A DNA stretch of 64,000 nt from Bryobacterales bacterium (lineage in GTDB: Bacteria > Acidobacteriota > Terriglobia > Bryobacterales > UBA6623), in NCBI GenBank assembly GCA_965205085.1, contig OZ242039.1:254036-318035 (forward strand), in the 5' to 3' direction. A program made the translations under genes and the position numbers. Below the pieces are notes generated by a model. That model saw only the letters and a list, made by a program, of their open reading frames with translations. It was not told the DNA's origin and did not search any database. Of the stretch, positions 44,891 to 64,000 are shown piece after piece; the stretch's first letter is position 1; the number at the start of each line of letters is the position of its first letter.

Positions 44891-45054
44891 CTTCTCCCCC
44901 CCCAAGTTCAGTGTCGGTCCGCCTGCTGATCGTTGTCCGGCATCCAGAATACCTGGGCAGTTACCTTGTTTCTGTTATTCTCGATATTACACTTGAGTGC
45001 AAGCTGGCACACCGCCATTTGGACCCTTGGCCATTGCAAGAAAGGAGGATCTGG

Positions 45055-45510
45055 ATGAGCAACGCTACCGACGCAGTGGATCTCGGACACCGTCTTCCGA
45101 CCCAAGACGAGATTGCTTGCGCTGCACAAGCGGTAACGGCCCTTGCCGACGTGCGGGGCGGGAACGGCGTCCTCGCCATTCACCGTGAAGACGGCGAGCC
45201 CGTTCGTCTGGTGCCCGCGATCGCCGCCCTAGTGCTCGATCTTCTTGACGGCGTTGCGGCGGGCCATACAGTCACGCTTGTTCCGGCTGGCGCGATGCTA
45301 AGCACGCAACAGGCGTCCGACATCCTCAGCGTCTCACGTCCGCACCTCAGCAGACTGCTCACGTCGGGCAAGATCCCGTTCGTTTCGGTCGGGGCCCACC
45401 GGCGCGTCATGCATGCCGATCTGATGGCTTACATTGACCGTCACGCCGCCGCGCGCCATGCGGCGCTCGACGATCTCGCCCGGCTCGGTCAGGAGTTCGA
45501 TGCGTCTTGA
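45055..45510 (+). CDS. Excisionase/MerR-type HTH protein, putative antitoxin of the downstream PIN protein
   Basis: ATG at 45055 is preceded by AAAGGAGG. LSTQQASDILSVSRPHLSRLLTSGKIPFVSVGAHRRV is an excisionase-family HTH. Its stop overlaps the start of the next gene. Confidence 0.7.
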   Translation: MSNATDAVDLGHRLPTQDEIACAAQAVTALADVRGGNGVLAIHREDGEPVRLVPAIAALVLDLLDGVAAGHTVTLVPAGAMLSTQQASDILSVSRPHLSRLLTSGKIPFVSVGAHRRVMHADLMAYIDRHAAARHAALDDLARLGQEFDAS

Positions 45511-46109
45511 TACAGCTTGGCGACCGTCGTGTCGCCCTGTTGGATGCGAACGTCCTGTTTCCGTTCCGCAAGCGAGACATTCTCTTGCGCTTCCACCATG
45601 CCGGATTATTCCGGGCACGATGGACGGAGCAGATTCTTGACGAGTGGACACTGAACCTCCTCGAACAAAAGCCGCATCTGGAATCGAGCGTCCGCTCCCA
45701 GCGCGATGCCATGCGCGAGTATTTCCCGGAGGCGCTGGTCACCGGATACGAGCCATTGATCGCGACGCTCAAACTTCCGGATGCCGACGACCGCCATGTT
45801 CTGGCGGCCGCGGTTCGCTGTGGCGCACAGTACATCATCACAGACAACTTGGCCGACTTTCCAGCTGAAGTCCTCGATCGGTTCGACATCGTGGCGATCG
45901 ACGCCGACGGGTTTCTGTCTCGGACGGTTGAACTCTATCCCTCCGAAGCGTTTGGTGTGCTGCGCGCCCTTCGGGAGGCCTACAGCAATCCGCCCTTCAC
46001 TCCGTCGGGGTTCGCTCGCGACCTGACGGCCAAGGGGCTAGCCCGGCTGGCTGCGCAGATACGCGAGCGTCAGGACGAGCTTGAGGGGAAAGCGCCCTGT
46101 CCCGGTTAA
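45507..46109 (+). CDS. PIN-domain protein (VapC-like toxin candidate)
   Basis: TTG start overlaps the upstream TGA. Acidic PIN positions are LLDANVL, DADDRHVLAAAV and IITDNLADF. Confidence 0.78.
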   Translation: MIQLGDRRVALLDANVLFPFRKRDILLRFHHAGLFRARWTEQILDEWTLNLLEQKPHLESSVRSQRDAMREYFPEALVTGYEPLIATLKLPDADDRHVLAAAVRCGAQYIITDNLADFPAEVLDRFDIVAIDADGFLSRTVELYPSEAFGVLRALREAYSNPPFTPSGFARDLTAKGLARLAAQIRERQDELEGKAPCPG

Positions 46110-54002: not shown

Positions 54003-54278
54003 GATTCGATGGGGTGCCGGGCCGACTCGCTGCCGAGCCGTCGCGTACCGATATAGCGTAGTAAAGCTTGGATTGCCGTGCCGGTCCGCTATCGGCCGCA
54101 CACGGTGAGAGCCCGTGAAAAAGTGTGGTTTCGCGGTTGCGGGTTTGGTCCGCAGAATGCAAGTGATGCATGGGCCGTCGGTGGCTCGACTGTTCCGCGG
54201 AAGAAAACAGGAGCTTATGCAAGCTTGCCGGTGGGCAGGTGGAAAAATCAGTATAATAATAGAATAAAAAGCGAATAT

Positions 54279-55010
54279 ATGAACCAGACAGCGAATTCCC
54301 CCGGGAACATCGAGGCGATTGAGGCATTGCTTCGCAAAAATGGATTCGGCCAGACCCTGTCCGGGCAGGGAAAGCCGCGCTGTTGCGCTGTACCGAGTGG
54401 AATCGAATGGCTGGACGCCCGCCTGGGTGGCGGCCTGCCGCAGGGCGCTATCAGCGAGATCATCGGGCCGTGCTCGTCCGGTCGTACGGGCCTGGTGCTG
54501 GCCGTTCTCGCGCGGTTAACCCAAGCCGGCGGGACCGCTGCGTACATTGATGTGACCGACTGTCTGGACCCGCGCTCGGCCGAGGGGGCCGGGGTCATCC
54601 TGGAGCGGCTGCTATGGATTCGCTGCGGTGCAGGGCAGGGAACCGGCCCCGATCGGTGTGTGCAGAAGCTGCCACCCATGGAGGAGGCGTGGCAGACGAC
54701 GAATCTGGCGGCCTCGGGATCTGGTTTCGGTGTGGTTGCGGTCGACCTGGGAGGCCTTTCGCTACACCAGCTGGGTGATTGGCAGAAGAGGGCTTGGATA
54801 CGGCTCAAGCATGCCGTGCGGGGCTCACAGACGGCACTGGTCGTGCTCGCCGAAAAGCACTTGGCTGGAAGTGCGGCGGAAATGGTGCTGGAACTGCGCC
54901 GGGAGGCAACCGAATGGAATGGCCTGCTGGGGAAGATCGAAATTTCCGCGAGAATCCTCAAGAACAGGGCGCAGGGGATGGATTGCTCCAACGGGGAACG
55001 TGCGGCATGA
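54279..55010 (+). CDS. imuA: ImuA-like (RecA/SulA-fold) mutasome component
   Basis: SGIEWLDARLGGGLPQGAISEIIGPCSSGRTGLVLAVLA (degenerate RecA-like P-loop). Directly upstream of imuB, with an ATGA overlap. Confidence 0.7.
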   Translation: MNQTANSPGNIEAIEALLRKNGFGQTLSGQGKPRCCAVPSGIEWLDARLGGGLPQGAISEIIGPCSSGRTGLVLAVLARLTQAGGTAAYIDVTDCLDPRSAEGAGVILERLLWIRCGAGQGTGPDRCVQKLPPMEEAWQTTNLAASGSGFGVVAVDLGGLSLHQLGDWQKRAWIRLKHAVRGSQTALVVLAEKHLAGSAAEMVLELRREATEWNGLLGKIEISARILKNRAQGMDCSNGERAA

Positions 55011-56596
55011 CCGGGCCGCCAGCCGGTGGAGTTGCTCGCGCTCCCGCCCTGTATGCCTCCCTGCACGTGGCGGATTTTCCGGTTGCCGTGCTGCGGGCGG
55101 ATGACAGGCTTCCGCAACCGACGGTGGTTGCTTGCGGGGAGCCTCCCAACCGGCTTGTCTACGCTGCGGACGTCATGGCCAGGGAAGGCGGTGTACGCGA
55201 GGGCATGGCGCTGGCAGCGGCCCAGGCACGTTACGGTTCCGCAGGGATGGAACAGCCCTTGCAGGTCCTGGACCGCAGTCCGAGAACCGAACGGCAAGTG
55301 CGGGCACGGTTGCTGCAACTGGCGGAGAGCGTGACTCCATTGTTCGAAGACGTCGCACCGGGGCTGCTCGCACTCGATTTCACGGGCTTGCGGGATCCGT
55401 ACGCCTCAGCGATGGATCTGCTCTCGGGAGCGGAGCGGTTTGGACTTAGAGCCAGTGTTGCCGTTTCCCGGAACCGGTTGGTCGCCTTGTGCGCGGCACG
55501 TACGCAGCGGGGAATCACCCACGTGTACCCGGGGCAGGAGGCCGGCTTTCTGAAGTCGTTGCCGCTTGATGTGCTGCCACTGGACAGCGAGTCCCTCCAG
55601 AATCTCCGGCGCTGGGGGTTGCGCCGGGTTGGCGAACTGGCACTCCTGCCCCTGTCCAGAATGGCCGAGCGGTTTGGGGAGCGCGGAGTGCGCATGGTCC
55701 GGCTGGCGCGTGGCGAGGCGGACTCGCAACTGAGTGCGCACCAACCCGAACCCCAGTTGGATCTGAGCCGGGATTTCGATTGGGAGATCGGGGAGGCCGA
55801 GCCGCTCGTGGCGGCGATTTCCGGGATGATCGAGCAGCTTTGCGACCGGCTGCGGGGTCTCGATAGGGCCGTGGCGAGCCTCACCACCCGGTTGCGGCTG
55901 GCTGGTGGGGGCGTGTTCGAGAGAACCATCAGGCTGCCGTATCCGCTGGGCGATTCGCGCACGCTCGTGACCTTGGTGCGGATTGATCTGGCAGCGCATC
56001 CGCCAGGAGACGCGGTGTCGGGTGTGCGGGTATCGGTTGACTGCGCAAAGCGTCGGCAGGTGCAGACGCACCTGTTCGAGCCGGATCTGCCGGATGTCGA
56101 CAATATGGTCGTAACGCTGGCCCGCCTGGTCTGTCTGGTTGGAGAGGAGAAGGTCGGTGCTCCGGTAGTTCTGGACACGTATCGGTCCGGGGCGGCCGCT
56201 CTCGAACCATTCCGGGTGGTGACGCGAGAGGGCGGGGCAGGGCGCAAGAAGGGCAAGGGGGGAGCCGATGATACGGTTCGGCCCCAGCAGGAAAGTTCCC
56301 GGCCGCGACGCTTGCGGCCAGCCGCGCCCCCTCGGAGTTTCCTGGTCTTTCGCTGCTTTCGCCCTTCCCGTCCTGCCACAGTGACGTTGCACGGGGGGCA
56401 GCCCCTGTGCGTCGAGTCACGCGGGGTGCGAGGTGCGGTGACCGCATGTGCCGGGCCCTGGCGTGTCTCGGGTGAGTGGTGGACCCCAGGCGGCTGGCAA
56501 TACCAGGAGTGGGACCTCGAGGTTGCCGGGCACCTGTACCGGGCCTGCTGCGAGAGGACGACGGGGGAATGGTTTTTGTCAGGCGAGTACGATTAG
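55007..56596 (+). CDS. imuB: ImuB, Y-family DNA polymerase-like protein
   Basis: LYASLHVADFPVAVL...VVACGEPPNRLVYAADVMAREGGVREGM (UmuC/DinB-like N-terminus). Lies between imuA and dnaE2. Confidence 0.8.
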   Translation: MTGPPAGGVARAPALYASLHVADFPVAVLRADDRLPQPTVVACGEPPNRLVYAADVMAREGGVREGMALAAAQARYGSAGMEQPLQVLDRSPRTERQVRARLLQLAESVTPLFEDVAPGLLALDFTGLRDPYASAMDLLSGAERFGLRASVAVSRNRLVALCAARTQRGITHVYPGQEAGFLKSLPLDVLPLDSESLQNLRRWGLRRVGELALLPLSRMAERFGERGVRMVRLARGEADSQLSAHQPEPQLDLSRDFDWEIGEAEPLVAAISGMIEQLCDRLRGLDRAVASLTTRLRLAGGGVFERTIRLPYPLGDSRTLVTLVRIDLAAHPPGDAVSGVRVSVDCAKRRQVQTHLFEPDLPDVDNMVVTLARLVCLVGEEKVGAPVVLDTYRSGAAALEPFRVVTREGGAGRKKGKGGADDTVRPQQESSRPRRLRPAAPPRSFLVFRCFRPSRPATVTLHGGQPLCVESRGVRGAVTACAGPWRVSGEWWTPGGWQYQEWDLEVAGHLYRACCERTTGEWFLSGEYD

Positions 56597-56615
56597 CCGT
56601 CGCGAGAGTCGAGGC

Positions 56616-59600
56616 ATGTACGTCGAACTGCACAGCGCGTCGGGATTCAGCTTCCTCGAAGGAGCGTCGGCTCCGGAGGACCTGCTCGGCGAGGCTGCGA
56701 ACCTGGGCTACGAGGCCCTGGCGCTATGCGACCGCGATTCGGTTTCCGGCGCACCGCGTTTTTTCCAGGCCGCACGCTCGGCAGGTGTGCGTGCACTGGT
56801 TGGGTGTGAGATCTCGCTCGACCAGCCGGGTATTCGGAAGGGTACCCCGAATGCGGTTCTGGACCGCAGACTGACCGTTCTGGTCGAGAACAGGGAGGGA
56901 TATCGCAACCTCTGCCAACTGCTTACACGAGTGAACCTGCGTTCGCCGAAAGGTGAGGGCCGCGCGCGCTGGGAGGACATGGACAACTACTCTTCCGGAC
57001 TCGTGGCCCTGCTGCACGACCTTCGGGATGAGGATGCGGTCCGGGGAATTTTTGGTCCGCGGAATGTGTATGTGGAATTGCAGCGCCACCTGCTGCGGGA
57101 GCAGGAACGCGACAACCGGGAGCGGGTCGCCTTCGCCCGCGCACATGGCCTGCCGCTGGTCGCCACGAATGGCGTGCGCTACGACACGGTGCGTCACAAG
57201 CCCCTTTACGACGCCCTGACCTGCCTGCGCTTCAAGCGCACACTCGACAATGCCGGTCGCCTGCTGGATGCCAACGCCGAACGTCACATCAAGCCCCCCG
57301 CAGCCATGGAACGGCTCTTTGCCGATTTGCCGGAAGCGATCGGGAATGCCGACGAGCTGGGCCAGCGCCTCGGGTTCACGCTGGAGAGGCTGGGATACGA
57401 GTTCCCGCGCTATCCCGTGCCGTCGGGAGAGACGGCCACCTCCTACTTGCGCAAGGAAACCCTGCGCGGAGCGGTCGAACGCTACCGCGGGTTACCGCAC
57501 CGCGAGAAGGCGTTCCGCCAGATCGACCGGGAACTCGACGTGATCGCAAAACTCCAGATGGAAGGCTACTTTCTGATTGTCTGGGACATTGTCGAGTTTG
57601 CCCGTCAGAACGGCATTCTCTGTCAGGGGAGGGGGTCGGCGGCCAATTCGACGGTCTGTTACTCGCTTGGCATTACTGCGGTCGACCCAGTCGGGATGGA
57701 CCTGCTCTTTGAGCGGTTCCTTTCCGAAGAGCGTAGCGAGTGGCCCGACATCGATGTCGACCTCCCGTCCGGGGCCCAGCGCGAGCGCGTGATCCAGCAC
57801 GTCTACGAACGATACGGAAAGCGCGGGGCGGGGATGGCGGCCAACGTCATCACCTACCGGGGCAAGAGCGCCGTGCGGGAGATGGGGAAGGTGCTGGGAT
57901 TTCCTGAAGAGATGATCGGACGACTGGCGAAGGGTATCAATGGATTCGAGTACGTAGATGACACGGACGACCTGCTCTGTCAAGCGGAGGAGGCCAGCCT
58001 TGATCGCAGCGACCCGCGAGTCGTCCACTGGCTGCGTCTCTGCCTTGACGTCCAGACATTGCCGCGCCACCTCGGGCAGCATTCTGGCGGCATGGTCATT
58101 TGCCAAGGCGATCTCGACGCAGTGGTTCCGCTCGAGAATGCGCGCATGCCGGGCCGGGTCGTCGTGCAATGGGACAAGGAAGACTGCGCCGATCTCGGCA
58201 TCATCAAGGTGGATCTGCTCGGGCTCGGCATGATGGCCGTGCTGCAGCAATCCACAGCGCTCATCCGGTCGCGGGGAGGATCGTTTGATCTGGCGAGGAT
58301 TCCGCCGGGCGATCCTGCCACGTACCGCATGATTCAGCAGGCGGACACGGTCGGGGTGTTCCAGATCGAGAGCCGAGCCCAGATGGCGACACTCCCACGG
58401 ATCAAGCCGGCCTGCTTTTATGATCTGGTCGTTGAGGTGGCCATCATCCGACCGGGCCCGATCACCGGCAACATGGTGCACCCCTATATCAACCGTCGCC
58501 TCGGGCGTGAGCCAGTCCGGTATGCGCACCCGTCGCTCGAGCCGATTCTCAAGCGCACCCTGGGCGTGCCACTTTTCCAGGAGCAGTTGCTGAGGATGGC
58601 GATGATCGCGGCGAAGTTTACAGGTGGCCAGGCCGAGCAGCTTCGGCGTGCGATGGGGTTCAAGCGCTCGCATGAGCGCATGAGCGAGCTAGAGGGGAAG
58701 CTGCGTACAGGCCTGTCGGAGAATGGTATTGAGGGGGACGCGGCCGAGGAGATCGTACGATCCATCAAGTCGTTTGCGCTGTACGGCTTTCCCGAGTCGC
58801 ACTCGGCGAGCTTTGCACTGCTGGCCTATGCCAGTTCGTACCTGAAGGCGCACTATCCGGCAGAGTTTCTGGCCGCCTTGTTGAACTGCCAGCCGATGGG
58901 GTTCTATTCGCCAGCGGTGCTGGTCAAGGATGCACAGCGACATGGAATGCGGGTGTTGCCGGTCGACGTGAACGAATCGGCCCCCCACTGCACGGTCGGA
59001 GACAGGCCCGGAGTTTCAGCGGGTCTTGCGTCGTGCGCTGCCTCGTTCGTCCGGCTCGGGTTGATGTACGTGGGCGACCTGCGGGCCGAAGCGGCCCGGA
59101 GGATTGCAGCGGACCGCGAGCGGGGGGGCCGGTACCGGTCGATCGAGGAGTTCGCCCGGCGCGTACGGCTCCAGAAGCACGAACTCGATGCGTTAGCTGA
59201 GATCGGTGCGCTCAATGCCTTGGGAAAGGGCATGCACCGGCGGGAAGCGCTTTGGCAGGTTGAGAGCGCGTGGCGGCCGAGAGGGCCGCTGTTCGACAGA
59301 CAGGACGAAACGCTGCCTGAGACGGGTCCGCTGGCACCGATGAATCCGTTCGAACGGCTCGAAACCGATTACCGGGTGATGGGGCTAACGGTCGGGAAGC
59401 ATCCGATGCACTACTTGCGCAGAGAGGTGTCGGGCATGGGCGCACTGTCTTCGCGTGAAATCGAGAGTGCAGCCAACGGTCAGCGGGTACGGGTGGCGGG
59501 TGCGGTGATCACCCGGCAACGGCCCGGAACAGCGAAGGGATTCTGCTTTGTCACCCTGGAGGACGAGATGGGCACTTCGAACCTGGTCCTGCCTCCCCAG

Positions 59601-59756
59601 GTGTTCGAAGCCTACCGACTCCTGGTGATGCACGAGACGTTCCTGCTAGCGGAAGGCGTGCTGCAGAACACTGACGGGACGGCGGCTGTCAAGACGGAAA
59701 GCCTGGTCCGCTTGCATTCGCCTGTGCTGGGGATGGGGTCGCACGATTTCCATTAG
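56616..59756 (+). CDS. dnaE2: Error-prone DNA polymerase III alpha subunit DnaE2
   Basis: 1046 aa with PHP N-terminus MYVELHSASGFSFLEGAS, GRGSAANS, KVDLLGLGM, IRPGPI and LFQEQ. Confidence 0.95.
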   Translation: MYVELHSASGFSFLEGASAPEDLLGEAANLGYEALALCDRDSVSGAPRFFQAARSAGVRALVGCEISLDQPGIRKGTPNAVLDRRLTVLVENREGYRNLCQLLTRVNLRSPKGEGRARWEDMDNYSSGLVALLHDLRDEDAVRGIFGPRNVYVELQRHLLREQERDNRERVAFARAHGLPLVATNGVRYDTVRHKPLYDALTCLRFKRTLDNAGRLLDANAERHIKPPAAMERLFADLPEAIGNADELGQRLGFTLERLGYEFPRYPVPSGETATSYLRKETLRGAVERYRGLPHREKAFRQIDRELDVIAKLQMEGYFLIVWDIVEFARQNGILCQGRGSAANSTVCYSLGITAVDPVGMDLLFERFLSEERSEWPDIDVDLPSGAQRERVIQHVYERYGKRGAGMAANVITYRGKSAVREMGKVLGFPEEMIGRLAKGINGFEYVDDTDDLLCQAEEASLDRSDPRVVHWLRLCLDVQTLPRHLGQHSGGMVICQGDLDAVVPLENARMPGRVVVQWDKEDCADLGIIKVDLLGLGMMAVLQQSTALIRSRGGSFDLARIPPGDPATYRMIQQADTVGVFQIESRAQMATLPRIKPACFYDLVVEVAIIRPGPITGNMVHPYINRRLGREPVRYAHPSLEPILKRTLGVPLFQEQLLRMAMIAAKFTGGQAEQLRRAMGFKRSHERMSELEGKLRTGLSENGIEGDAAEEIVRSIKSFALYGFPESHSASFALLAYASSYLKAHYPAEFLAALLNCQPMGFYSPAVLVKDAQRHGMRVLPVDVNESAPHCTVGDRPGVSAGLASCAASFVRLGLMYVGDLRAEAARRIAADRERGGRYRSIEEFARRVRLQKHELDALAEIGALNALGKGMHRREALWQVESAWRPRGPLFDRQDETLPETGPLAPMNPFERLETDYRVMGLTVGKHPMHYLRREVSGMGALSSREIESAANGQRVRVAGAVITRQRPGTAKGFCFVTLEDEMGTSNLVLPPQVFEAYRLLVMHETFLLAEGVLQNTDGTAAVKTESLVRLHSPVLGMGSHDFH

Positions 59757-59862: not shown

Positions 59863-61207
59863 TGCCGGTTGCACTAGGAAATGCAACAGCGGGCGGAGGG
59901 CTCTAAGGTCCTGATGGGCCTATCCTAGGGGAGAAATCGCCATGCCTCAACAGTTCCGCCACCTGCAATACGACGAGCGCTGCCAGATCCATGCCTTGCA
60001 CCAGCAGGGATTCTCGGTCACCGCCATCGCCGCTCAACTCCAGCGTCACAAGTCCACCGTCTGTCGCGAACTCCGGCGTAACGCCGGCCCTTCCGGCTAT
60101 CACCATGAGCAGGCCCAGCAACTCGCTCGAGAGCGCCGCCACCGGGCCGTCACCGGCCCGCGCAAGCTCCAGCCAGCGATCTGGAACCTCATCTCTGACT
60201 GGCTCCAGCGCGACTGGAGCCCCGAGCAGGTGGCTGGTTCCCTGAAGCGGGTTGGAGCAGTGTCGGTCAGCTTCCCGTGGCTCTACCAGCGGATTCACCA
60301 GGACCGCGCCCAGGGCGGCTCACTCTACACCTACCTGCGGCAGCGCGGCAAGCCGCGCCGCTGCAAGGCCAGCCGGGGCAGCGCCGGCCGCGGCTGCATC
60401 CCGGGCCGCAGGGACCTCAGCGAACGCCCCGCGATCGTCGACTCGAAGCAGCGCTGCGGGGACTGGGAGGCCGACACGATCATCGGCAAGGCCCATAAAG
60501 GAGCCGCTGTCACGCTGGTGGAGAGGAAGTCGAAGTAGCTGCTTGCTCAGACAGTTAGACGGAAGACCGCCGCTTTGGTGGGTGACGCGATGCAGAACCT
60601 GCTGTGGCCCTTCTCGGCCCTGGTCCTGACCGTGACCTGTGACAACGGGAAGGAGTTCGCCGGCCCCGCCAGACCGCCGAGGCGCTCGACACCGACCTCT
60701 TCTTTGCCCTGCCCTACCGCTCCTGCGAGCGAGGCCTCAACGAACATACCAACGGCCTGCTGCGCCAGTTCGTGCCCAACTCCAAGAACCTGCGCACACT
60801 CGACCCGCAACGGCTGCAGGAAGCCATCAACCGGCTCAACCACCGCCCCCGCAAGGTGCTTGGCTAACGCACCCCGTAGGAGGTCTTCCGCGACGACTGT
60901 CTTGCTGTCTTGCGGCCGGCATCGACCCGCCACCCGCAGCCCCCGACCCCGGTCCTCTCTGATCGGGGCCGCAACGCGGCCCTCCCCGACGCACTTGCCC
61001 CTCTCGATCTGGCGGGCCCAGCCCGCCAGCGCCCCTGTGGTCCGGCCGCCTTTTCGGGCCAGATCCTCCTGCCCCCCTCGCGTAAAGGCCCCCGAGCGTC
61101 GCCTTGACAGATCCACCCCGCCTGCCGTACCCTGCTAGCAGTTCAGCCACTTACTCCAAGGGCCCTCTTCCCCGCTCGCTGTTGCGGTTCGATGTGCAAT
61201 GGGTGCC
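59863..61207 (+). mobile_element. IS30-family element, copy D (most complete, 1345 bp) but non-functional
   Basis: Left end TGCCGGTTGCACTAGGAAATGCAAC at 59863, hairpin 61009-61029, TTGACA 61104-61109 / TACCCT 61128-61133, IR-like end GTTGCGGTTCGATGTGCAATGGGTGCC up to about 61207. Confidence 0.85.
59942..60870 (+). pseudogene. IS30-family transposase with a TAG at 60536, a 1-nt deletion after KEFAG, and further stops
   Basis: MPQQFRHLQYDERCQIHALHQQGFSVTAIAAQLQRHKSTVCRELRRN..WLYQRIHQDRAQGG..VERKSK*LLAQTV..TCDNGKEFAG(frameshift)..LNHRPRKVLG*. Confidence 0.88.
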
Positions 61208-61326
61208 CTGCCGATCTGGGCACTATTGCATAGAATCCCCGCTAGGATCATAAAGTGGATAGTTCCCAATGAGAATTGCGGCACTGCCGGGCGGCAACTT
61301 GACACGGATGGTATACTCATTTACCA

Positions 61327-61797
61327 ATGGGGATCATGGGTGTCAGCACTGAGCAGACGCCTGTTGCGGCGTTGATCGTGGCGAAGCACATTCTGCTACT
61401 GCGGGATAGGGTCGACACCACGCCCATGCATGTGCTCAAGCTGGTATATCTGTGCCATGGGTGGATGCTGGGAATCCACGACACTCCGCTCATTGCTGAG
61501 CCTGTGGAGGCATGGCCGTACGGTCCCGTCGTGCCGACGGTGTACCACCGATACAAGAGGTACGGTAATGGGATCATCGTCGAGAGCGTGGCGGACCGAA
61601 GTGAGGACTTGACGCCCACGATGAGCGAACTGATCAAGTCCATAGAAGGTGTATACCGCCCATGTTCGGCTTTTCAACTCTCCGCTCTGACCCATCAGCC
61701 TGACACACCTTGGGACCTCACGCGCCGTGAAAAGGGAATTGGATCAGTGATTTCGAATGAACTGATCCGAGACCACTATCGGGGCCTGCTGGAGTGA
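61327..61797 (+). CDS. Panacea / DUF4065 (SocA, GepA-like) domain protein, putative antitoxin
   Basis: 156 aa. TTPMHVLKLVYLCHGWMLGIHDTPLIAEPVEAWPYGPVVPTVYHRYKRYG matches the DUF4065 core pattern (KL.KL.Y...G..L......L......AW..GPV....Y) as I remember it. Confidence 0.72.
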   Translation: MGIMGVSTEQTPVAALIVAKHILLLRDRVDTTPMHVLKLVYLCHGWMLGIHDTPLIAEPVEAWPYGPVVPTVYHRYKRYGNGIIVESVADRSEDLTPTMSELIKSIEGVYRPCSAFQLSALTHQPDTPWDLTRREKGIGSVISNELIRDHYRGLLE

Positions 61798-62039
61798 TAA
61801 ACCCCATTGAGAGAGCCCGGCAAGCACTTGAAGAAGCGTTACAGCGCCTTCCGGGCGAACCCGAAGGTGCTCATTTTACAATCGAACAGCTCGACTTAAT
61901 GGTTGCGGAAGCGGTTTCCCGGGAACTTGACAAACGCAGTAAGGAGCGCTGGGAGTTTGTCTGGAAGATGATCCAGCGCACAGGATGGATCATCGCTCCC
62001 ATTGCCGGCTCTGCCGTGATTTGGCGCACCTGCGCATGA
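61794..62039 (+). CDS. Hypothetical 81-aa protein with a hydrophobic C-terminal segment, candidate toxin partner
   Basis: GTG start overlaps the upstream TGA (GTGA). The N-terminal part is charged and helical-looking (ERARQALEEALQRL..ELDKRSKERWEFVWKMIQR); the C-terminal segment TGWIIAPIAGSAVIW is hydrophobic. No family recognised. Confidence 0.4.
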   Translation: MINPIERARQALEEALQRLPGEPEGAHFTIEQLDLMVAEAVSRELDKRSKERWEFVWKMIQRTGWIIAPIAGSAVIWRTCA

Positions 62040-62044
62040 GCACT

Positions 62045-62330
62045 TCAGATCGCCCAACTGGCCGACAGAACTTCGGCCTGCACCAGAACGGTCCGGGTCG
62101 CCGACTCCTGCTTGTCCTTGTCCGGCGGATAGCCGTGCCTCTGGAGGACGCGCTTCCCAAGGCGGCGGAGATTGGCGCGGACATTCAACCGTCGCGTCTA
62201 GTTGATGGTGACGCCCCCAAGTCTGTGCCACCGCCGATAGTTCGCAAATGCAGCGCAACTCGCAGGATCCGTCTGGGAGGGAATTCTTCCGGAACGATCA
62301 AGGGTCCATGGCCGCCGGTGCGATTGCACC
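62045..62330 (-). pseudogene. hsdR: Type I restriction enzyme R subunit (HsdR) C-terminal fragment
   Basis: Minus strand reads ..[55 protein letters not shown], matching the HsdR C-terminal (DUF3387-type) consensus ..IDWT.RE.VRA.LR..VKR.L.K.GYPPDK...A...VL.QAE.L. It has an internal stop and upstream frameshifts. Confidence 0.6.
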
Positions 62331-62683
62331 TGTCGTGACCAAGGGAAGTGGTCGGGCTGGAGGACAAGACGGCCCGTGTCCCCGGACACGCTCGACGCCG
62401 TTTGCGAAGTCCGCTTCCGGATCGACCGGCGTAGGCCCCTGCCGAGTCGCAGTGGCCAGCCACGCCAGCCGGTGCTGAACTCTGGCCTACCAGCTCCGTG
62501 GCAGTGTCAGCCGGCGGCGATCACAACCCATTCCAGCCTCTCGCTGACACGGATGCTGGACCCAGGCACCAACGTGCGCCTCGTCTACGAACCCCCTCCT
62601 GCCGCCCCGAACGGACCACCCGCTAGTTTCGCGGACGCTGTCGGTTCCTCCGAACAGCGACATCCATAAAGTGGTCAATCCCT

Positions 62684-62749
62684 TGCCGGTTGCACAAGGA
62701 AGCGCAACAGAGGGCGGATTGGGCCTAAGGTCCTGATGGGCCTATCCTA
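62684..62749 (+). mobile_element. IS30-family left end, interrupted by an IS630 element
   Basis: TGCCGGTTGCACAAGGAAGCGCAACAGAGGGCGGATTGGGCCTAAGGTCCTGATGGGCCTATCCTAG. Homology to copy D stops 11 nt before the position of its ATG. Confidence 0.8.
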
Positions 62750-63880
62750 GTGTCTACCGTTAGAAATGTGTTGACATCGGATCGGGGTTCTGGCACCGTC
62801 GTTGCAGACTCGAGAGGCAGAGATGGCCAATCAACCTACGCGAGTATCCCCCCAAATTGCGGACCCGCTACGCCAGCAACTGAACCGCTGGCTGCGACGG
62901 CAGAAGACCTCGCAGGCGCTGGCCTTGCGGGTGCGCATCATCCTTCATTCAGCCCAAGGCCACAGCGATCAGTGAGTCGCAGACAGATTGCATCCCACCC
63001 GCATCACGGCCGGGAAATGGCGGCGACGGTTCCTGGAGCACGGCTGCGACGGCTGGCTGGACAAACCCCGCTCAGGTGCGCCGAGGACGGTGACGGATGC
63101 CGATGGGGAGCAGGTCGTGGTACGAACCTTGCAGACACGTCCCCGAGGGGCAACCCAGTGGAGCCGCAAGTTGATGGCCCAAGCCTCCGGACTGAGCCCC
63201 TCCACCCTCGGCCGCATCTGGCGTGCATTCGGGCTCCAGCCACATCGGAGCGAGACATTCAAGTTGTCGCAGGACCTGCAGCTTATGCAGAAAGTGCCGG
63301 ATATCGTGGGTTTGTACATCCATCCGCCCGAGCGCGCAGTGGTGCTTTGTGTGGATGAGAATTCACAAATCCAGGCCCTGGACCGCACCCAGCCGGTCTT
63401 GCCGATGCAACCGGGAGTCCCCGAGCGGCAGACCCACGACGACCAACGCAAGGGGACGACCTCCCTGTTCGCGGCCCTGCATATCGCGACCGGTGAGGGG
63501 ACCGGCAAGGGCTATCGACGCCACCGCGCCGTGGAGTTCAAGAAGTTCCTGGCGCTGATCGACAAGGTGGTGCCAGAGACCCACGATGGGCATCGGGTCC
63601 TCGACAACTACGGGACCCATAAGTCAGCGCAGATCCAGAGCTGGCTGCGGCGGCGGCCGCGCTACCACCTGCACTTCACGCCGACTAGTGTTCTGTCACT
63701 GTCGAATTCGCGGGTAGGGCTTGGGTCGGTGCAGCGTGAACGGCGAAATACCAGCTGCCGATAACAGTTGTACGTCCGCTGCCGTTAACTCCAAGATCAA
63801 CCTGTGACGGAACACTAGTGCCTCGTGGTTGAATCAGGTGGAGCGTTGGTCTGCCGAGATCACGCGGCGGCGGATTCGCC
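62750..63880 (+). mobile_element. IS630-family element with a pseudogenised transposase (ATG 62823; in-frame TGA; MITE insertion; 3' truncation)
   Basis: MANQPTRVSPQIADPLRQQLNRWL..ALRVRIIL..SDQ*VADRL..TAGKWRRRFLEHG..LDKPRSGAPR..VLCVDENSQIQAL..GTTSLFAAL..VLDNYGTHKS..HFTPTS[MITE]ASWLNQVERW. Confidence 0.82.
63689..63814. mobile_element. 126-bp MITE-like element inserted in the IS630 transposase gene
   Basis: Terminal inverted repeats TGTTCTGTCACTG (63689-) and CCTGTGACGGAACA (-63814), flanked by CTAG at 63685-63688 and 63815-63818. Removing it restores the frame ..HFTPTSASWLNQ. Confidence 0.8.
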
Positions 63881-64000
63881 AGGACCGCGCCCAAGACGGC
63901 ACGCTGGACACCTACCTGCGGCAGCGCTGCAAGGCCAGCCGCGGCTGCATCCCGGGCCGCAGGGGCATCAGCGAGCGCCCCGCGATCGTCGACTCGAAGC
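63871..64000 (+). mobile_element. IS30-family internal fragment, runs off the right window edge
   Basis: RIRQDRAQDGTLDTYLRQRCKASRGCIPGRRGISERPAIVDSK matches copy B, C and D coding sequence. It is joined to IS630 within CGGATTCGCC. Confidence 0.8.

Follow-up and report, generated by a model that had tools for sequence, protein, structure and literature searches.

The locus at positions 61327-62039 of the window (the whole stretch of DNA analysed, 64,000 nucleotides from a Bryobacterales bacterium) raises the question of whether two small, overlapping genes form a toxin-antitoxin pair and, if so, of what kind. A first-pass annotation, made from the letters alone, had read them as a candidate pair of the PanA type, in which a Panacea-domain antitoxin precedes a small toxin of no recognised family with a hydrophobic C-terminus. 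PanA is the textbook "hyperpromiscuous" antitoxin, and because 88 partner clusters have already been catalogued, another partner family was to be expected and is not surprising.

The panA gene and its overlapping partner

The first gene, panA (61327-61797, plus strand), encodes a standalone Panacea/DUF4065 antitoxin-type protein of 156 aa. The Panacea-like core proposed for it was recovered by profile search, in which Pfam model SocA_Panacea (PF13274) matched residues 37-129 with 60.2 bits (E = 4.5e-16) against a gathering cutoff of 25.7. With WP_000287252.1, the E. coli PanA that was shown by experiment to neutralise a membrane toxin (PMC8832971), the protein shares 39% identity across 129 aligned residues (E = 1e-27); its identity to the PanA of Burkholderia phage phiE52237, likewise validated, is 35%. 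The two most conserved motifs of this PanA, WPYGPV and LTHQP, contain an invariant Tyr (Y65) and an invariant His (H123), respectively. Comparison with the PanA of a metagenomic relative (L001) gave a dN/dS of 0.20. An ATG at 61336 lines up with the start of the L001 protein, and the true start may therefore be 61336 rather than 61327, which would shorten PanA to 153 aa; both ORFs of the first-pass annotation are present as drawn, with the 5′ end of panA possibly set three codons too early.

The second gene, the candidate panT (61794-62039, plus strand), encodes an 81-aa helical protein that belongs to a rare, unnamed family, here called family A, and is the presumed toxin. Its GTG start overlaps the TGA stop of panA in the sequence GTGA at 61794-61797 (plus strand), just as had been read at first pass, and this overlap suggests translational coupling of the two genes. 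Between the small ORF and that of L001, whose protein is 81% identical, 28 of the 45 nucleotide differences fall at third codon positions, and pN/pS, at 0.20 in the coding frame, rises to 0.31 in the antisense frame that shares third codon positions with it and to 0.9-2.6 in the four other frames. A chance ORF was ruled out by this frame-specific purifying selection together with conservation across the family, and the substitution pattern marks the small ORF as a real gene under purifying selection.

Family A and its pairing with PanA

Family A comprises 14 proteins among 5.8 billion searched, all from metagenomes and none of them named, and its members are 29-81% identical to the 81-aa protein, so that the small ORF is conserved in relatives. 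The expectation that such homologues would recur beside Panacea genes was borne out without exception: in 19 of 19 other loci inspected (14 metagenome contigs, together with five MAG loci of Vicinamibacterales and Ca. Marinacidobacterales), PanA is encoded directly upstream of the family A gene, the two genes being separated by -8 to 0 nt. Of the 14 relatives listed, 10 have the -4 overlap (ATGA or GTGA), the remaining gaps being -8, -1, or 0 nt, and family A is paired with two PanA lineages. The outer flanks differ in every locus (transposases, terminase, ParAB, methyltransferases), and no third gene is conserved beside the pair in the loci inspected. The boundary of the module is marked by these differing flanks and by the DNA match to L001, which ends with the final conserved codon of the small ORF. 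In one locus (L041), an insertion of IS630 type truncates the candidate toxin gene within its apolar tail, with PanA left intact; loss of the candidate toxin with retention of PanA is the order of decay expected for a toxin-antitoxin pair.

The in silico definition of PanAT given by Kurata et al. (2022; PMC8832971) calls for a Panacea/DUF4065 domain in one gene, a second gene on the same strand within 100 nt, relatives of the toxin that also lie beside PanA, and a conserved neighbourhood of no more than three genes. At this locus, these correspond to the PF13274 match, the 4-nt overlap, the 19 paired loci, and the divergent flanks, and the block at 61327-62039 is probably a PanAT-type toxin-antitoxin pair, as judged from its sequence and that of its relatives. 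All of the computational checks suggested with the first-pass annotation went its way, and nothing arose that would have refuted it in silico.

That the small protein belongs to no recognisable family, as initially claimed, also held up: no match was found in Pfam (searched with the single sequence and with all 14 members), NCBIfam, PADLOC, or PHROGs, nor in the PDB, either by profile sequence search or by Foldseek of an AF2 model. Searches of other collections with the small protein returned only noise from plasmids (tblastn, E ≥ 0.4) and nothing from viral contigs (pattern scan). A pattern scan of species-representative genomes was also empty because back-translated patterns are limited, though relatives exist there, and these were recovered only through a PanA scan followed by hmmsearch.

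The same PanA clade precedes other small proteins as well. PanAs 37-58% identical to the one described here lie upstream of proteins of family B (17 loci) and family C (34 loci), both from MAGs, which resemble family A in PanA clade, gene position, and overlap, in their size (∼85-125 aa), and in combining a charged N-terminal part with a hydrophobic segment. Homology of family A to families B and C was rejected (hhalign probabilities of 0.6% and 2.7%), as was homology to the validated toxin of cluster T3, WP_000019185.1 (0.2%). Identification of family C with published cluster T3 found no support either (0.8% against WP_000019185.1); a family C profile search returned only unnamed metagenome proteins, and in the mapping of family C to T3, neither a Marinobacter locus searched by blastn in E. 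coli genomes nor tblastn against plasmids gave a match. The clade carries small-protein partners of at least three kinds (families A, B, and C) that are unrelated to one another, and family A is credible as a new family of PanT in an already established kind of system, with T3 being the one published T cluster to which its sequence was compared.

The hydrophobic tail and the proposed mode of action

The small protein ends in QRTGWIIAPIAGSAVIWRTCA, in agreement with the charged N-terminal part and hydrophobic C-terminus first described for it, an architecture that is also that of validated membrane-acting PanT toxins (PMC8832971). Charge counts and the alignment define a basic stretch at residues 47-62 (KRSKERWEFVWKMIQR; 61932-61979, plus strand), in which W57 is invariant and Q61 nearly so; in family A members, basic residues contribute +4 to +7 in the 15 positions just ahead of the apolar segment, a count that omits the repeat-disrupted row of L010. 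The apolar segment itself, identified from the alignment, hydropathy, and the AF2 model, spans residues 63-77 (TGWIIAPIAGSAVIW; 61980-62024, plus strand), is rich in Gly, Ala, and Pro, and shows a conserved G64-x3-[A/G]68-x3-G72 pattern together with Pro69. The AF2 model (pLDDT 73.6 and pTM 0.33, of moderate confidence) predicts a short helix (residues 4-18) that a loop joins to a single long helix (30-80), with the apolar segment at the end of the latter.

As a transmembrane helix, this tail appears marginal. Family A typically has 15 uncharged residues in a row, whereas families B and C have 22-residue uncharged segments with clear transmembrane scores. The maximum Kyte-Doolittle value over 19 residues is 1.11 here, the lowest in family A, against a family median of 1.59, a classical threshold of 1.6, and values of 2.31 and 2.62 for families B and C. 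On the Hessa scale, a simple 19-mer sum is positive for the small protein and below zero, the favourable sign, in only one of 14 family A members, compared with 10 of 17 in family B and 32 of 34 in family C. The first-pass reading of a membrane-type small toxin was upheld with a reservation: the hydrophobic C-terminal segment is present, but because it is short (∼15 uncharged residues) and marginal, the case for membrane action is weaker than had been implied, and such action is plausible from the sequence, with about an even chance of being correct.

The toxicity of the small protein, its direct neutralisation by PanA, and a membrane target are what we infer, and together they give the following account, in which the pair is a type II PanA-PanT cassette with a membrane-inserting toxin sequestered by PanA. 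PanA would be translated first and the 81-aa protein, as the toxin, by coupling through the GTGA overlap. PanA would bind the toxin directly in the cytoplasm and render it harmless, most likely through contact with the N-terminal part of the toxin and the helix before its tail, as for the standalone PanA of Bartonella. If PanA were lost or triggered, free toxin would insert its tail in the inner membrane with the N-terminus inside, oligomerise through the G-x3-A/G-x3-G face, and dissipate the membrane potential, upon which growth would stop. The cassette would be mobile as a self-contained two-gene unit, found here between two IS30 copies and beside a restriction-gene remnant. We assign this account as a whole a probability of roughly 60%.

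The strongest competitor keeps a PanA-neutralised toxin but has it not span the membrane, its tail serving as an oligomerisation or PanA-binding surface or as a peripheral anchor while the N-terminal part acts on a cytoplasmic target. Besides the marginal tail, this would fit the N-terminal 45 residues, which are as well conserved as the tail (T29 and E31 are invariant, within the pattern LTxEQLDxMI), and the variable 8-residue repeat linker that L005, L010, and L012 tolerate between the N-terminal part and the tail, as expected of two separable modules. However, tail anchors typically show a basic flank, an apolar helix at the very C-terminus, and a Gly-x3-small-x3-Gly pattern, as this protein does. 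In this PanA clade, the remaining small partners all possess clear transmembrane segments, and the N-terminal part matched no enzymatic or nucleic-acid-binding family. We consider this alternative unlikely. It is also doubtful, to a similar degree, that family A is a mechanistically distinct PanT class. In that case, its conserved tail of ∼15 residues, kinked by Pro and bearing the G-x3-A/G-x3-G pattern, would be too short and too polar for an ordinary transmembrane helix, and the protein would act only as an oligomer that forms a glycine-zipper pore, or else its conserved N-terminal helices would have a target outside the membrane.

A second competitor does away with toxicity and makes the small protein a membrane-tethered partner or adaptor of a PanA that acts as a sensor, for example in signalling or phage sensing, with the effector encoded elsewhere. 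Ernits et al. (PMC10440598) hypothesised that the Panacea domain may act as a sensor and not merely as a neutraliser, strict co-occurrence speaks for partnership and not for toxicity, and a classic pore former would not be expected to be so weakly hydrophobic. The lack of a third conserved gene and the different flanks at each locus nevertheless weigh against this reading, and the antitoxin-first, two-gene, mobile, and IS-flanked layout with its 4-nt overlap is that of validated PanAT pairs (PMC8832971). The only disrupted copy found, moreover, is the one in L041 that lost the tail of the small gene and kept PanA. A non-toxic partner is therefore judged quite improbable, and the sequestered, membrane-inserting toxin remains the preferred reading.

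Genomic setting, known systems, and significance

The lower GC content that had been noted by eye was confirmed by count: the two-gene block has 56.4%, the whole window 62.3%, and the upstream dnaE2 gene 63.4%. The bracketing IS30 copies were likewise recovered. Copy 1 (59863-61207, plus strand), recognised by repeats and by HTH_38 in the ORF at 59942-60538, has its transposase split over several frames and lies 120 bp upstream of the cassette; its right end at 61207 is that of the initial sequence reading, and the independent contig described below begins at 61178. Copy 2 (62684-64000, plus strand), recognised by repeats D1-D5, is in the same orientation, is interrupted by an IS630-type element, and runs off the window. 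The left end of the element (59863-59928) recurs at 62684-62750 with 89-100% identity and internal sequence (60289-60449) recurs at 63870-64000, and there are therefore two real IS30 copies in direct orientation. Copy 2 contains ∼750 extra bases with an IS630-type ORF (DDE_3/HTH_32) at 62988-63764, a feature not remarked on at first pass. On the other side of the small ORF, the convergent hsdR fragment is a degraded remnant (62045-62197, minus strand) from the C-terminal part of a type I restriction gene; it matches profile positions 285-327 of 329 of PF11867 (T1RH-like_C; E = 4e-9), contains an in-frame stop, and ends 5 nt from the stop of the small ORF.

This setting invites the view that the cassette is a silent passenger, intact but unexpressed, with an IS30 copy on either side, inside a restriction-modification locus that is decaying. 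The hsdR gene is reduced to its stop-containing remnant, both IS30 copies look broken or interrupted, a promoter and terminator scan found no sigma-70-like promoter or terminator on the plus strand, and a single RNA-labelled run yielded no contigs matching the locus; the upstream IS30 copy may have removed the native regulation of the cassette. Against this, both ORFs are full length relative to their families with no frameshift or stop, an independent short-read contig reproduces 61178-62741 with zero differences, and the changes relative to L001 are mostly synonymous, which makes a silent passenger improbable. A TTGACA at 61299-61304 and a TATACT at 61312-61317 were rejected as a canonical promoter, being only 7 nt apart. 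A type I toxin-antitoxin system was also rejected: Rfam gave no match at E ≤ 1 in 61100-62700, no known antisense or regulatory RNA is present at the locus, and the partner is instead a protein.

The resemblance to SocAB of Caulobacter, a type VI system, lies in the shared antitoxin domain PF13274, which was named after SocA, a Panacea-domain protein. A SocAB-like arrangement, with PanA as a proteolytic adaptor delivering the toxin to ClpXP and not sequestering it, is very improbable here, since the best NCBIfam model for PanA is indeed SocA_antitoxin (NF047745) but its 77 bits fall far under that model's equivalog cutoff (190), no annotated family, SocB among them, resembles the small protein, nothing indicates adaptor-mediated degradation, and for the PanA antitoxins examined in published work, pull-downs and mutagenesis point to direct binding (PMC8832971; PMC10440598).

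Two validated PanAT systems are closer to the sequestering PanA-PanT cassette proposed here. The E. coli STEC pair, identified by its RefSeq accessions (WP_000287252.1 and WP_000019185.1; T3; PMC8832971), is also a two-gene mobile cassette with a standalone PanA first, and its PanT is likewise small, charged in its N-terminal part and hydrophobic at the C-terminus; however, that PanT has 182 aa and two clear C-terminal transmembrane segments, compared with 81 aa and one 15-residue apolar tail, and its gene lies 22 nt after panA, whereas the two genes here overlap by 4 nt. In Bartonella apis/choladocola (PanT T12, NetFlax node D11; PMC8832971; PMC10440598), the small toxin has a charged N-terminus and a C-terminal transmembrane segment and is neutralised directly by a standalone PanA, which is predicted to contact its N-terminal region and pre-transmembrane helix; mutagenesis (Y56A and H120E) supports this contact (PMC10440598). 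Y65 and H123 of the PanA described here may be the equivalents of Y56 and H120. A search for literature after 2023 on Panacea and PanAT returned nothing beyond Ernits et al. The cassette is, on sequence grounds, a further example of an already described and tested type of system and not a new type.

For annotation, 61327-61797 is panA and 61794-62039 a putative panT. Family A is invisible to annotation libraries and found only in uncultured Acidobacteriota-type MAGs and metagenomes, and it extends the PanA partner catalogue to lineages unsampled by published surveys. Its unusually short tail offers a test case for whether all "small hydrophobic PanTs" disrupt membranes. A compact natural set for the study of specificity re-wiring is formed by a PanA clade whose small partners fall into three unrelated families and a small-protein family that occurs with two PanA lineages; this clade, which comes chiefly from uncultured MAGs of Acidobacteriota and several further phyla, would be a natural series in which to follow the re-targeting of a single antitoxin fold to new toxins.

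The panA gene and its overlapping small ORF

The product of the 156-aa plus-strand ORF at 61327-61797 (PanA, gene panA) matched Pfam PF13274 (SocA_Panacea) with E=4.5e-16 and 60.2 bits (gathering score, 25.7); the match spans residues 37-129, nearly the entire model, bearing out the Panacea/DUF4065 core proposed in the first-pass annotation, and the protein carries no additional N-terminal domain. The first codon of panA in the closest relative (L001, below) lines up with an ATG at 61336, which may be the true start here and would give 153 aa. The panA TGA stop is overlapped by the GTG start of the 81-aa small ORF (61794-62039, plus strand; the candidate panT) in the bases GTGA at 61794-61797, as had been read from the sequence, and the lower GC content of the two-gene block, previously judged by eye, was measured at 56.4%, compared with 62.3% for the whole window and 63.4% for the adjacent dnaE2.

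Judged by its substitution pattern, the small ORF is a genuine gene. A word-indexed search returned one relative of its product, 81% identical, on a 1,080-bp JGI metagenome contig (L001), which carries a panA gene as well. Third codon positions hold 28 of the 45 differences between the two small genes (234 nt aligned). The annotated frame had a pN/pS of 0.20; the value was 0.31 for the antisense frame that shares third codon positions with it, and 0.9-2.6 in the four other frames. Over their full lengths, the small gene and panA had dN/dS values of 0.145 and 0.20, respectively.

The cassette and an hsdR remnant fill 61208-62683, between two direct IS30-family copies. The first copy (59863-61207) has its transposase split over several frames; the second (62684-64000) is interrupted by an IS630-type element with a DDE_3/HTH_32 transposase ORF at 62988-63764, because of which the IS30-internal repeat offset is ~750 bp larger. 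The left end at 59863-59928 recurs in direct orientation at 62684-62750, so the bracketing claimed at first pass holds, as does the convergent hsdR fragment: the 3' end of a gene for a type I restriction R subunit lies on the minus strand, ends 5 nt past the small-ORF stop, and matches PF11867 (profile positions 285-327 of 329, E=4e-9) with an in-frame stop. Nothing recognisable was found further upstream of this remnant. Short-read contigs of independent runs match 61178-62741 with zero differences, and the cassette sequence is therefore reliable; contig depth is 14.8 over the unique cassette vs 200-2900 over the IS flanks, so the IS30 element is at very high copy number in the sample.

The placement of the cassette between two direct IS30 copies resembles a composite transposon, and an error-prone polymerase/mutagenesis cassette of imuA-like (RecA fold), imuB (IMS family), and dnaE2 genes (54078-59756) lies directly upstream of the first copy. 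A 28-nt stretch just upstream of panA (61300-61327, TGACACGGATGGTATACTCATTTACCAA) is repeated at 75% identity at 62545-62572, within degraded sequence that lies upstream of the hsdR remnant; the repeat may be chance. A second toxin-antitoxin-like pair occurs at 44911-46109 (plus strand), where genes for an HTH_17 protein (44911-45510) and a PIN_3-domain protein (45507-46109) overlap by 4 nt.

A rare family paired with PanA, and other partners

Scanning all 1.84 billion cluster representatives with HMMER added eight more clusters (78-112 aa, 40-55% identity), and a profile search of 5.8 billion proteins brought the family, here family A, to 14 members. Each comes from a metagenome assembly of ENA, JGI, or Logan, and ‘hypothetical protein’ is the only name that any of them has. 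Neither the single sequence nor all 14 members matched Pfam, and the small protein had no match in NCBIfam, PADLOC, PHROGs, or, by profile, the PDB, in agreement with the initial failure to recognise a family. By these searches, family A is real but rare.

Homologue loci were inspected on 14 contigs for nine proteins from the HMMER scan and word-indexed search and three from the profile search, and a PF13274 gene lay immediately upstream, on the same strand, of every small-protein homologue. A PanA-alignment scan of species-representative genomes yielded 80 loci, with the best matches in MAGs labelled Vicinamibacterales and Candidatus Marinacidobacterales, and an HMM of family A placed it downstream of PanA at five of them (L010-L013 and L041); the suggested coupling to Panacea genes thus recurs in both sets. 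Ten of the 14 relatives listed have the same -4 nt spacing of panA and the small gene as the window; it is -8, -1, or 0 nt in the remaining four. Outside the pair, neighbours differ from locus to locus, without exception among the loci inspected (IS1595, IS110, Transposase_31, terminase, ParAB, methyltransferases, sulfatases), and the window and L001 cease to resemble each other at the DNA level after the final conserved codon of the small ORF. On both counts, the pair is a mobile, self-contained unit of two genes. A Panacea domain, a spacing of ≤100 nt, presence in at least two species, reciprocity, and the lack of a longer operon define PanAT loci in the published in-silico scheme, and all were found for the window pair.

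Most of the 80 genome loci have a small ORF directly downstream of the related PanA gene, and clustering gave three main partner families: A (15 loci, window counted), B (17 loci; ~70-115 aa, mostly 85-100; a C-terminal TM follows a motif like RERVxxLE..KHxATKxDV..VKxW), and C (34 loci; ~110-125 aa; a central TM is followed by WHxLxPxxWHWL...LFSG). Families B and C (among L014-L089) are unnamed small membrane proteins, and smaller partner groups also exist, for example at L072 and L084. Homology of family A to B or C was rejected (profile-profile probabilities of 0.6% and 2.7%, respectively), and one PanA clade therefore has several unrelated partners. In a neighbour-joining tree of PanA domains, twelve PanAs with family A partners cluster together and those of L007, L009, and L041 are placed elsewhere, among C-type PanAs; a single putative toxin family thus occurs with two PanA lineages, and partner swapping of this sort was described by Kurata et al. 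(PMC8832971).

Relation to validated PanAT systems

A tblastn search of phage genomes with the window PanA (136 records) included matches in Burkholderia phage phiE52237 (35% identity), whose PanAT is experimentally validated, and in E. coli phage 1720a-02 (39%). A search of 5,426 complete E. coli genomes located the E. coli PanAT cassette in 79; in strain STEC1588, two genes 22 nt apart are annotated with the exact accessions of the validated pair, PanA WP_000287252.1 and the membrane-depolarising PanT WP_000019185.1 of cluster T3 (PMC8832971, Table 1, Dataset S1). The window PanA is 39% identical to this PanA over 129 residues (E=1e-27), whereas the E. coli PanT (182 aa, its N-terminal half acidic and two clear hydrophobic segments near its C-terminus) has no similarity to the family A profile (probability 0.2%), and families B and C likewise did not match it. 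The validated pair lies at a prophage end (L095/L096, in phage 1720a-02 and STEC chromosomes), adjoining a PrtN-family gene and a truncated tRNA-dihydrouridine synthase gene; phage record KF030445.1 leaves the panA gene itself unannotated.

Shape and proposed action of the small protein

An AlphaFold2 model of the small protein (10-sequence alignment; moderate confidence, with pLDDT 73.6 and pTM 0.33) has two helices, one at 4-18 and a continuous one at 30-80, separated by a loop of low confidence, and had no Foldseek match in the PDB. Across family A, the N-terminal helix is conserved (ARQALEEAL), T29 and E31 are invariant inside the pattern LTxEQLDxMI, and a basic stretch (RRKxRW...W57...Q61R) precedes an apolar tail with the consensus G64-x-V-I-A68-P-L-A-G72-L-x-V-I, often then W-R-x-C, whose spacing, read as G-x3-[A/G]-x3-G, is reminiscent of the packing face of a glycine zipper. 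Across the family, +4 to +7 basic residues were counted in the 15 positions preceding the tail, excluding the L010 row, in which an Ala/Pro-rich repeat displaces the measured run; this pattern fits an N-in, C-out tail anchor. In the family A proteins of L005 (4001-4339), L010 (2935-3321), and L012 (2917-3279), 3 to 5 copies of a tandem 8-residue repeat, (A/E)LPAAVA(R/E), form a linker of variable length that joins the conserved N-terminal helices to the basic/apolar tail.

The charged, helical N-terminal part described at first pass is thus recovered at the model's moderate confidence, and the hydrophobic C-terminal segment is present but marginal. The tail typically has exactly 15 uncharged residues, and the best 19-residue Kyte-Doolittle average is 1.11 in the window protein, the lowest in the family (median 1.59), against medians of 2.31 and 2.62 in families B and C. 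A simple Hessa-scale 19-mer sum, with no position weighting, was favourable in 1/14 family A proteins vs 10/17 and 32/34 in the other two families.

The best-supported reading, with a probability of about 0.8, is a type II PanAT module in which panA and the small gene would be co-translated via the GTGA overlap, PanA would sequester the small protein, and the free small protein would be toxic. Sequestration is adopted from Ernits et al. (PMC10440598), whose mutagenesis demonstrated direct neutralisation of a small membrane toxin by a standalone Panacea domain, with a predicted contact through the toxin N-terminal region and a short helix preceding the TM; PanA would contact the small protein through the same parts. 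The tail of the free toxin would then enter the inner membrane and oligomerise. Given its architecture and the company it keeps, this is the most likely mode of action, at roughly even odds because the hydrophobicity is marginal.

A PanA-neutralised toxin with a target other than the membrane would sit more easily with the marginal tail and less easily with that architecture and company, and is considered unlikely. Less likely again is a non-toxic small protein serving as a membrane-tethered partner of a sensor-type PanA. The L041 cassette is 100% identical to that of L009 over 843 nt, panA included, and from ~3193 an IS630-type element interrupts its family A gene inside the apolar tail, leaving panA intact, an order of decay expected, in this single case, if the small gene were the harmful partner. 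Slightly less probable still is a cassette that is intact yet silent in this genome. A SocAB-like adaptor mechanism is very improbable: PanA scored 77 bits on the NCBIfam SocA_antitoxin equivalog model, far under the cutoff of 190, and with PF13274 above its cutoff it is a Panacea-domain protein, not a SocA orthologue.

The kind of system to which the preferred PanAT module belongs, pairing a standalone PanA with a small downstream protein charged at its N-terminus and hydrophobic at its C-terminus, is already established and experimentally validated. Family A appears unrelated to the partners with which it was compared, namely the T3 toxin and families B and C. What is new, judging from the records searched, is this partner family itself, unannotated and confined to uncultured lineages, which a specialist would regard as useful and unsurprising.
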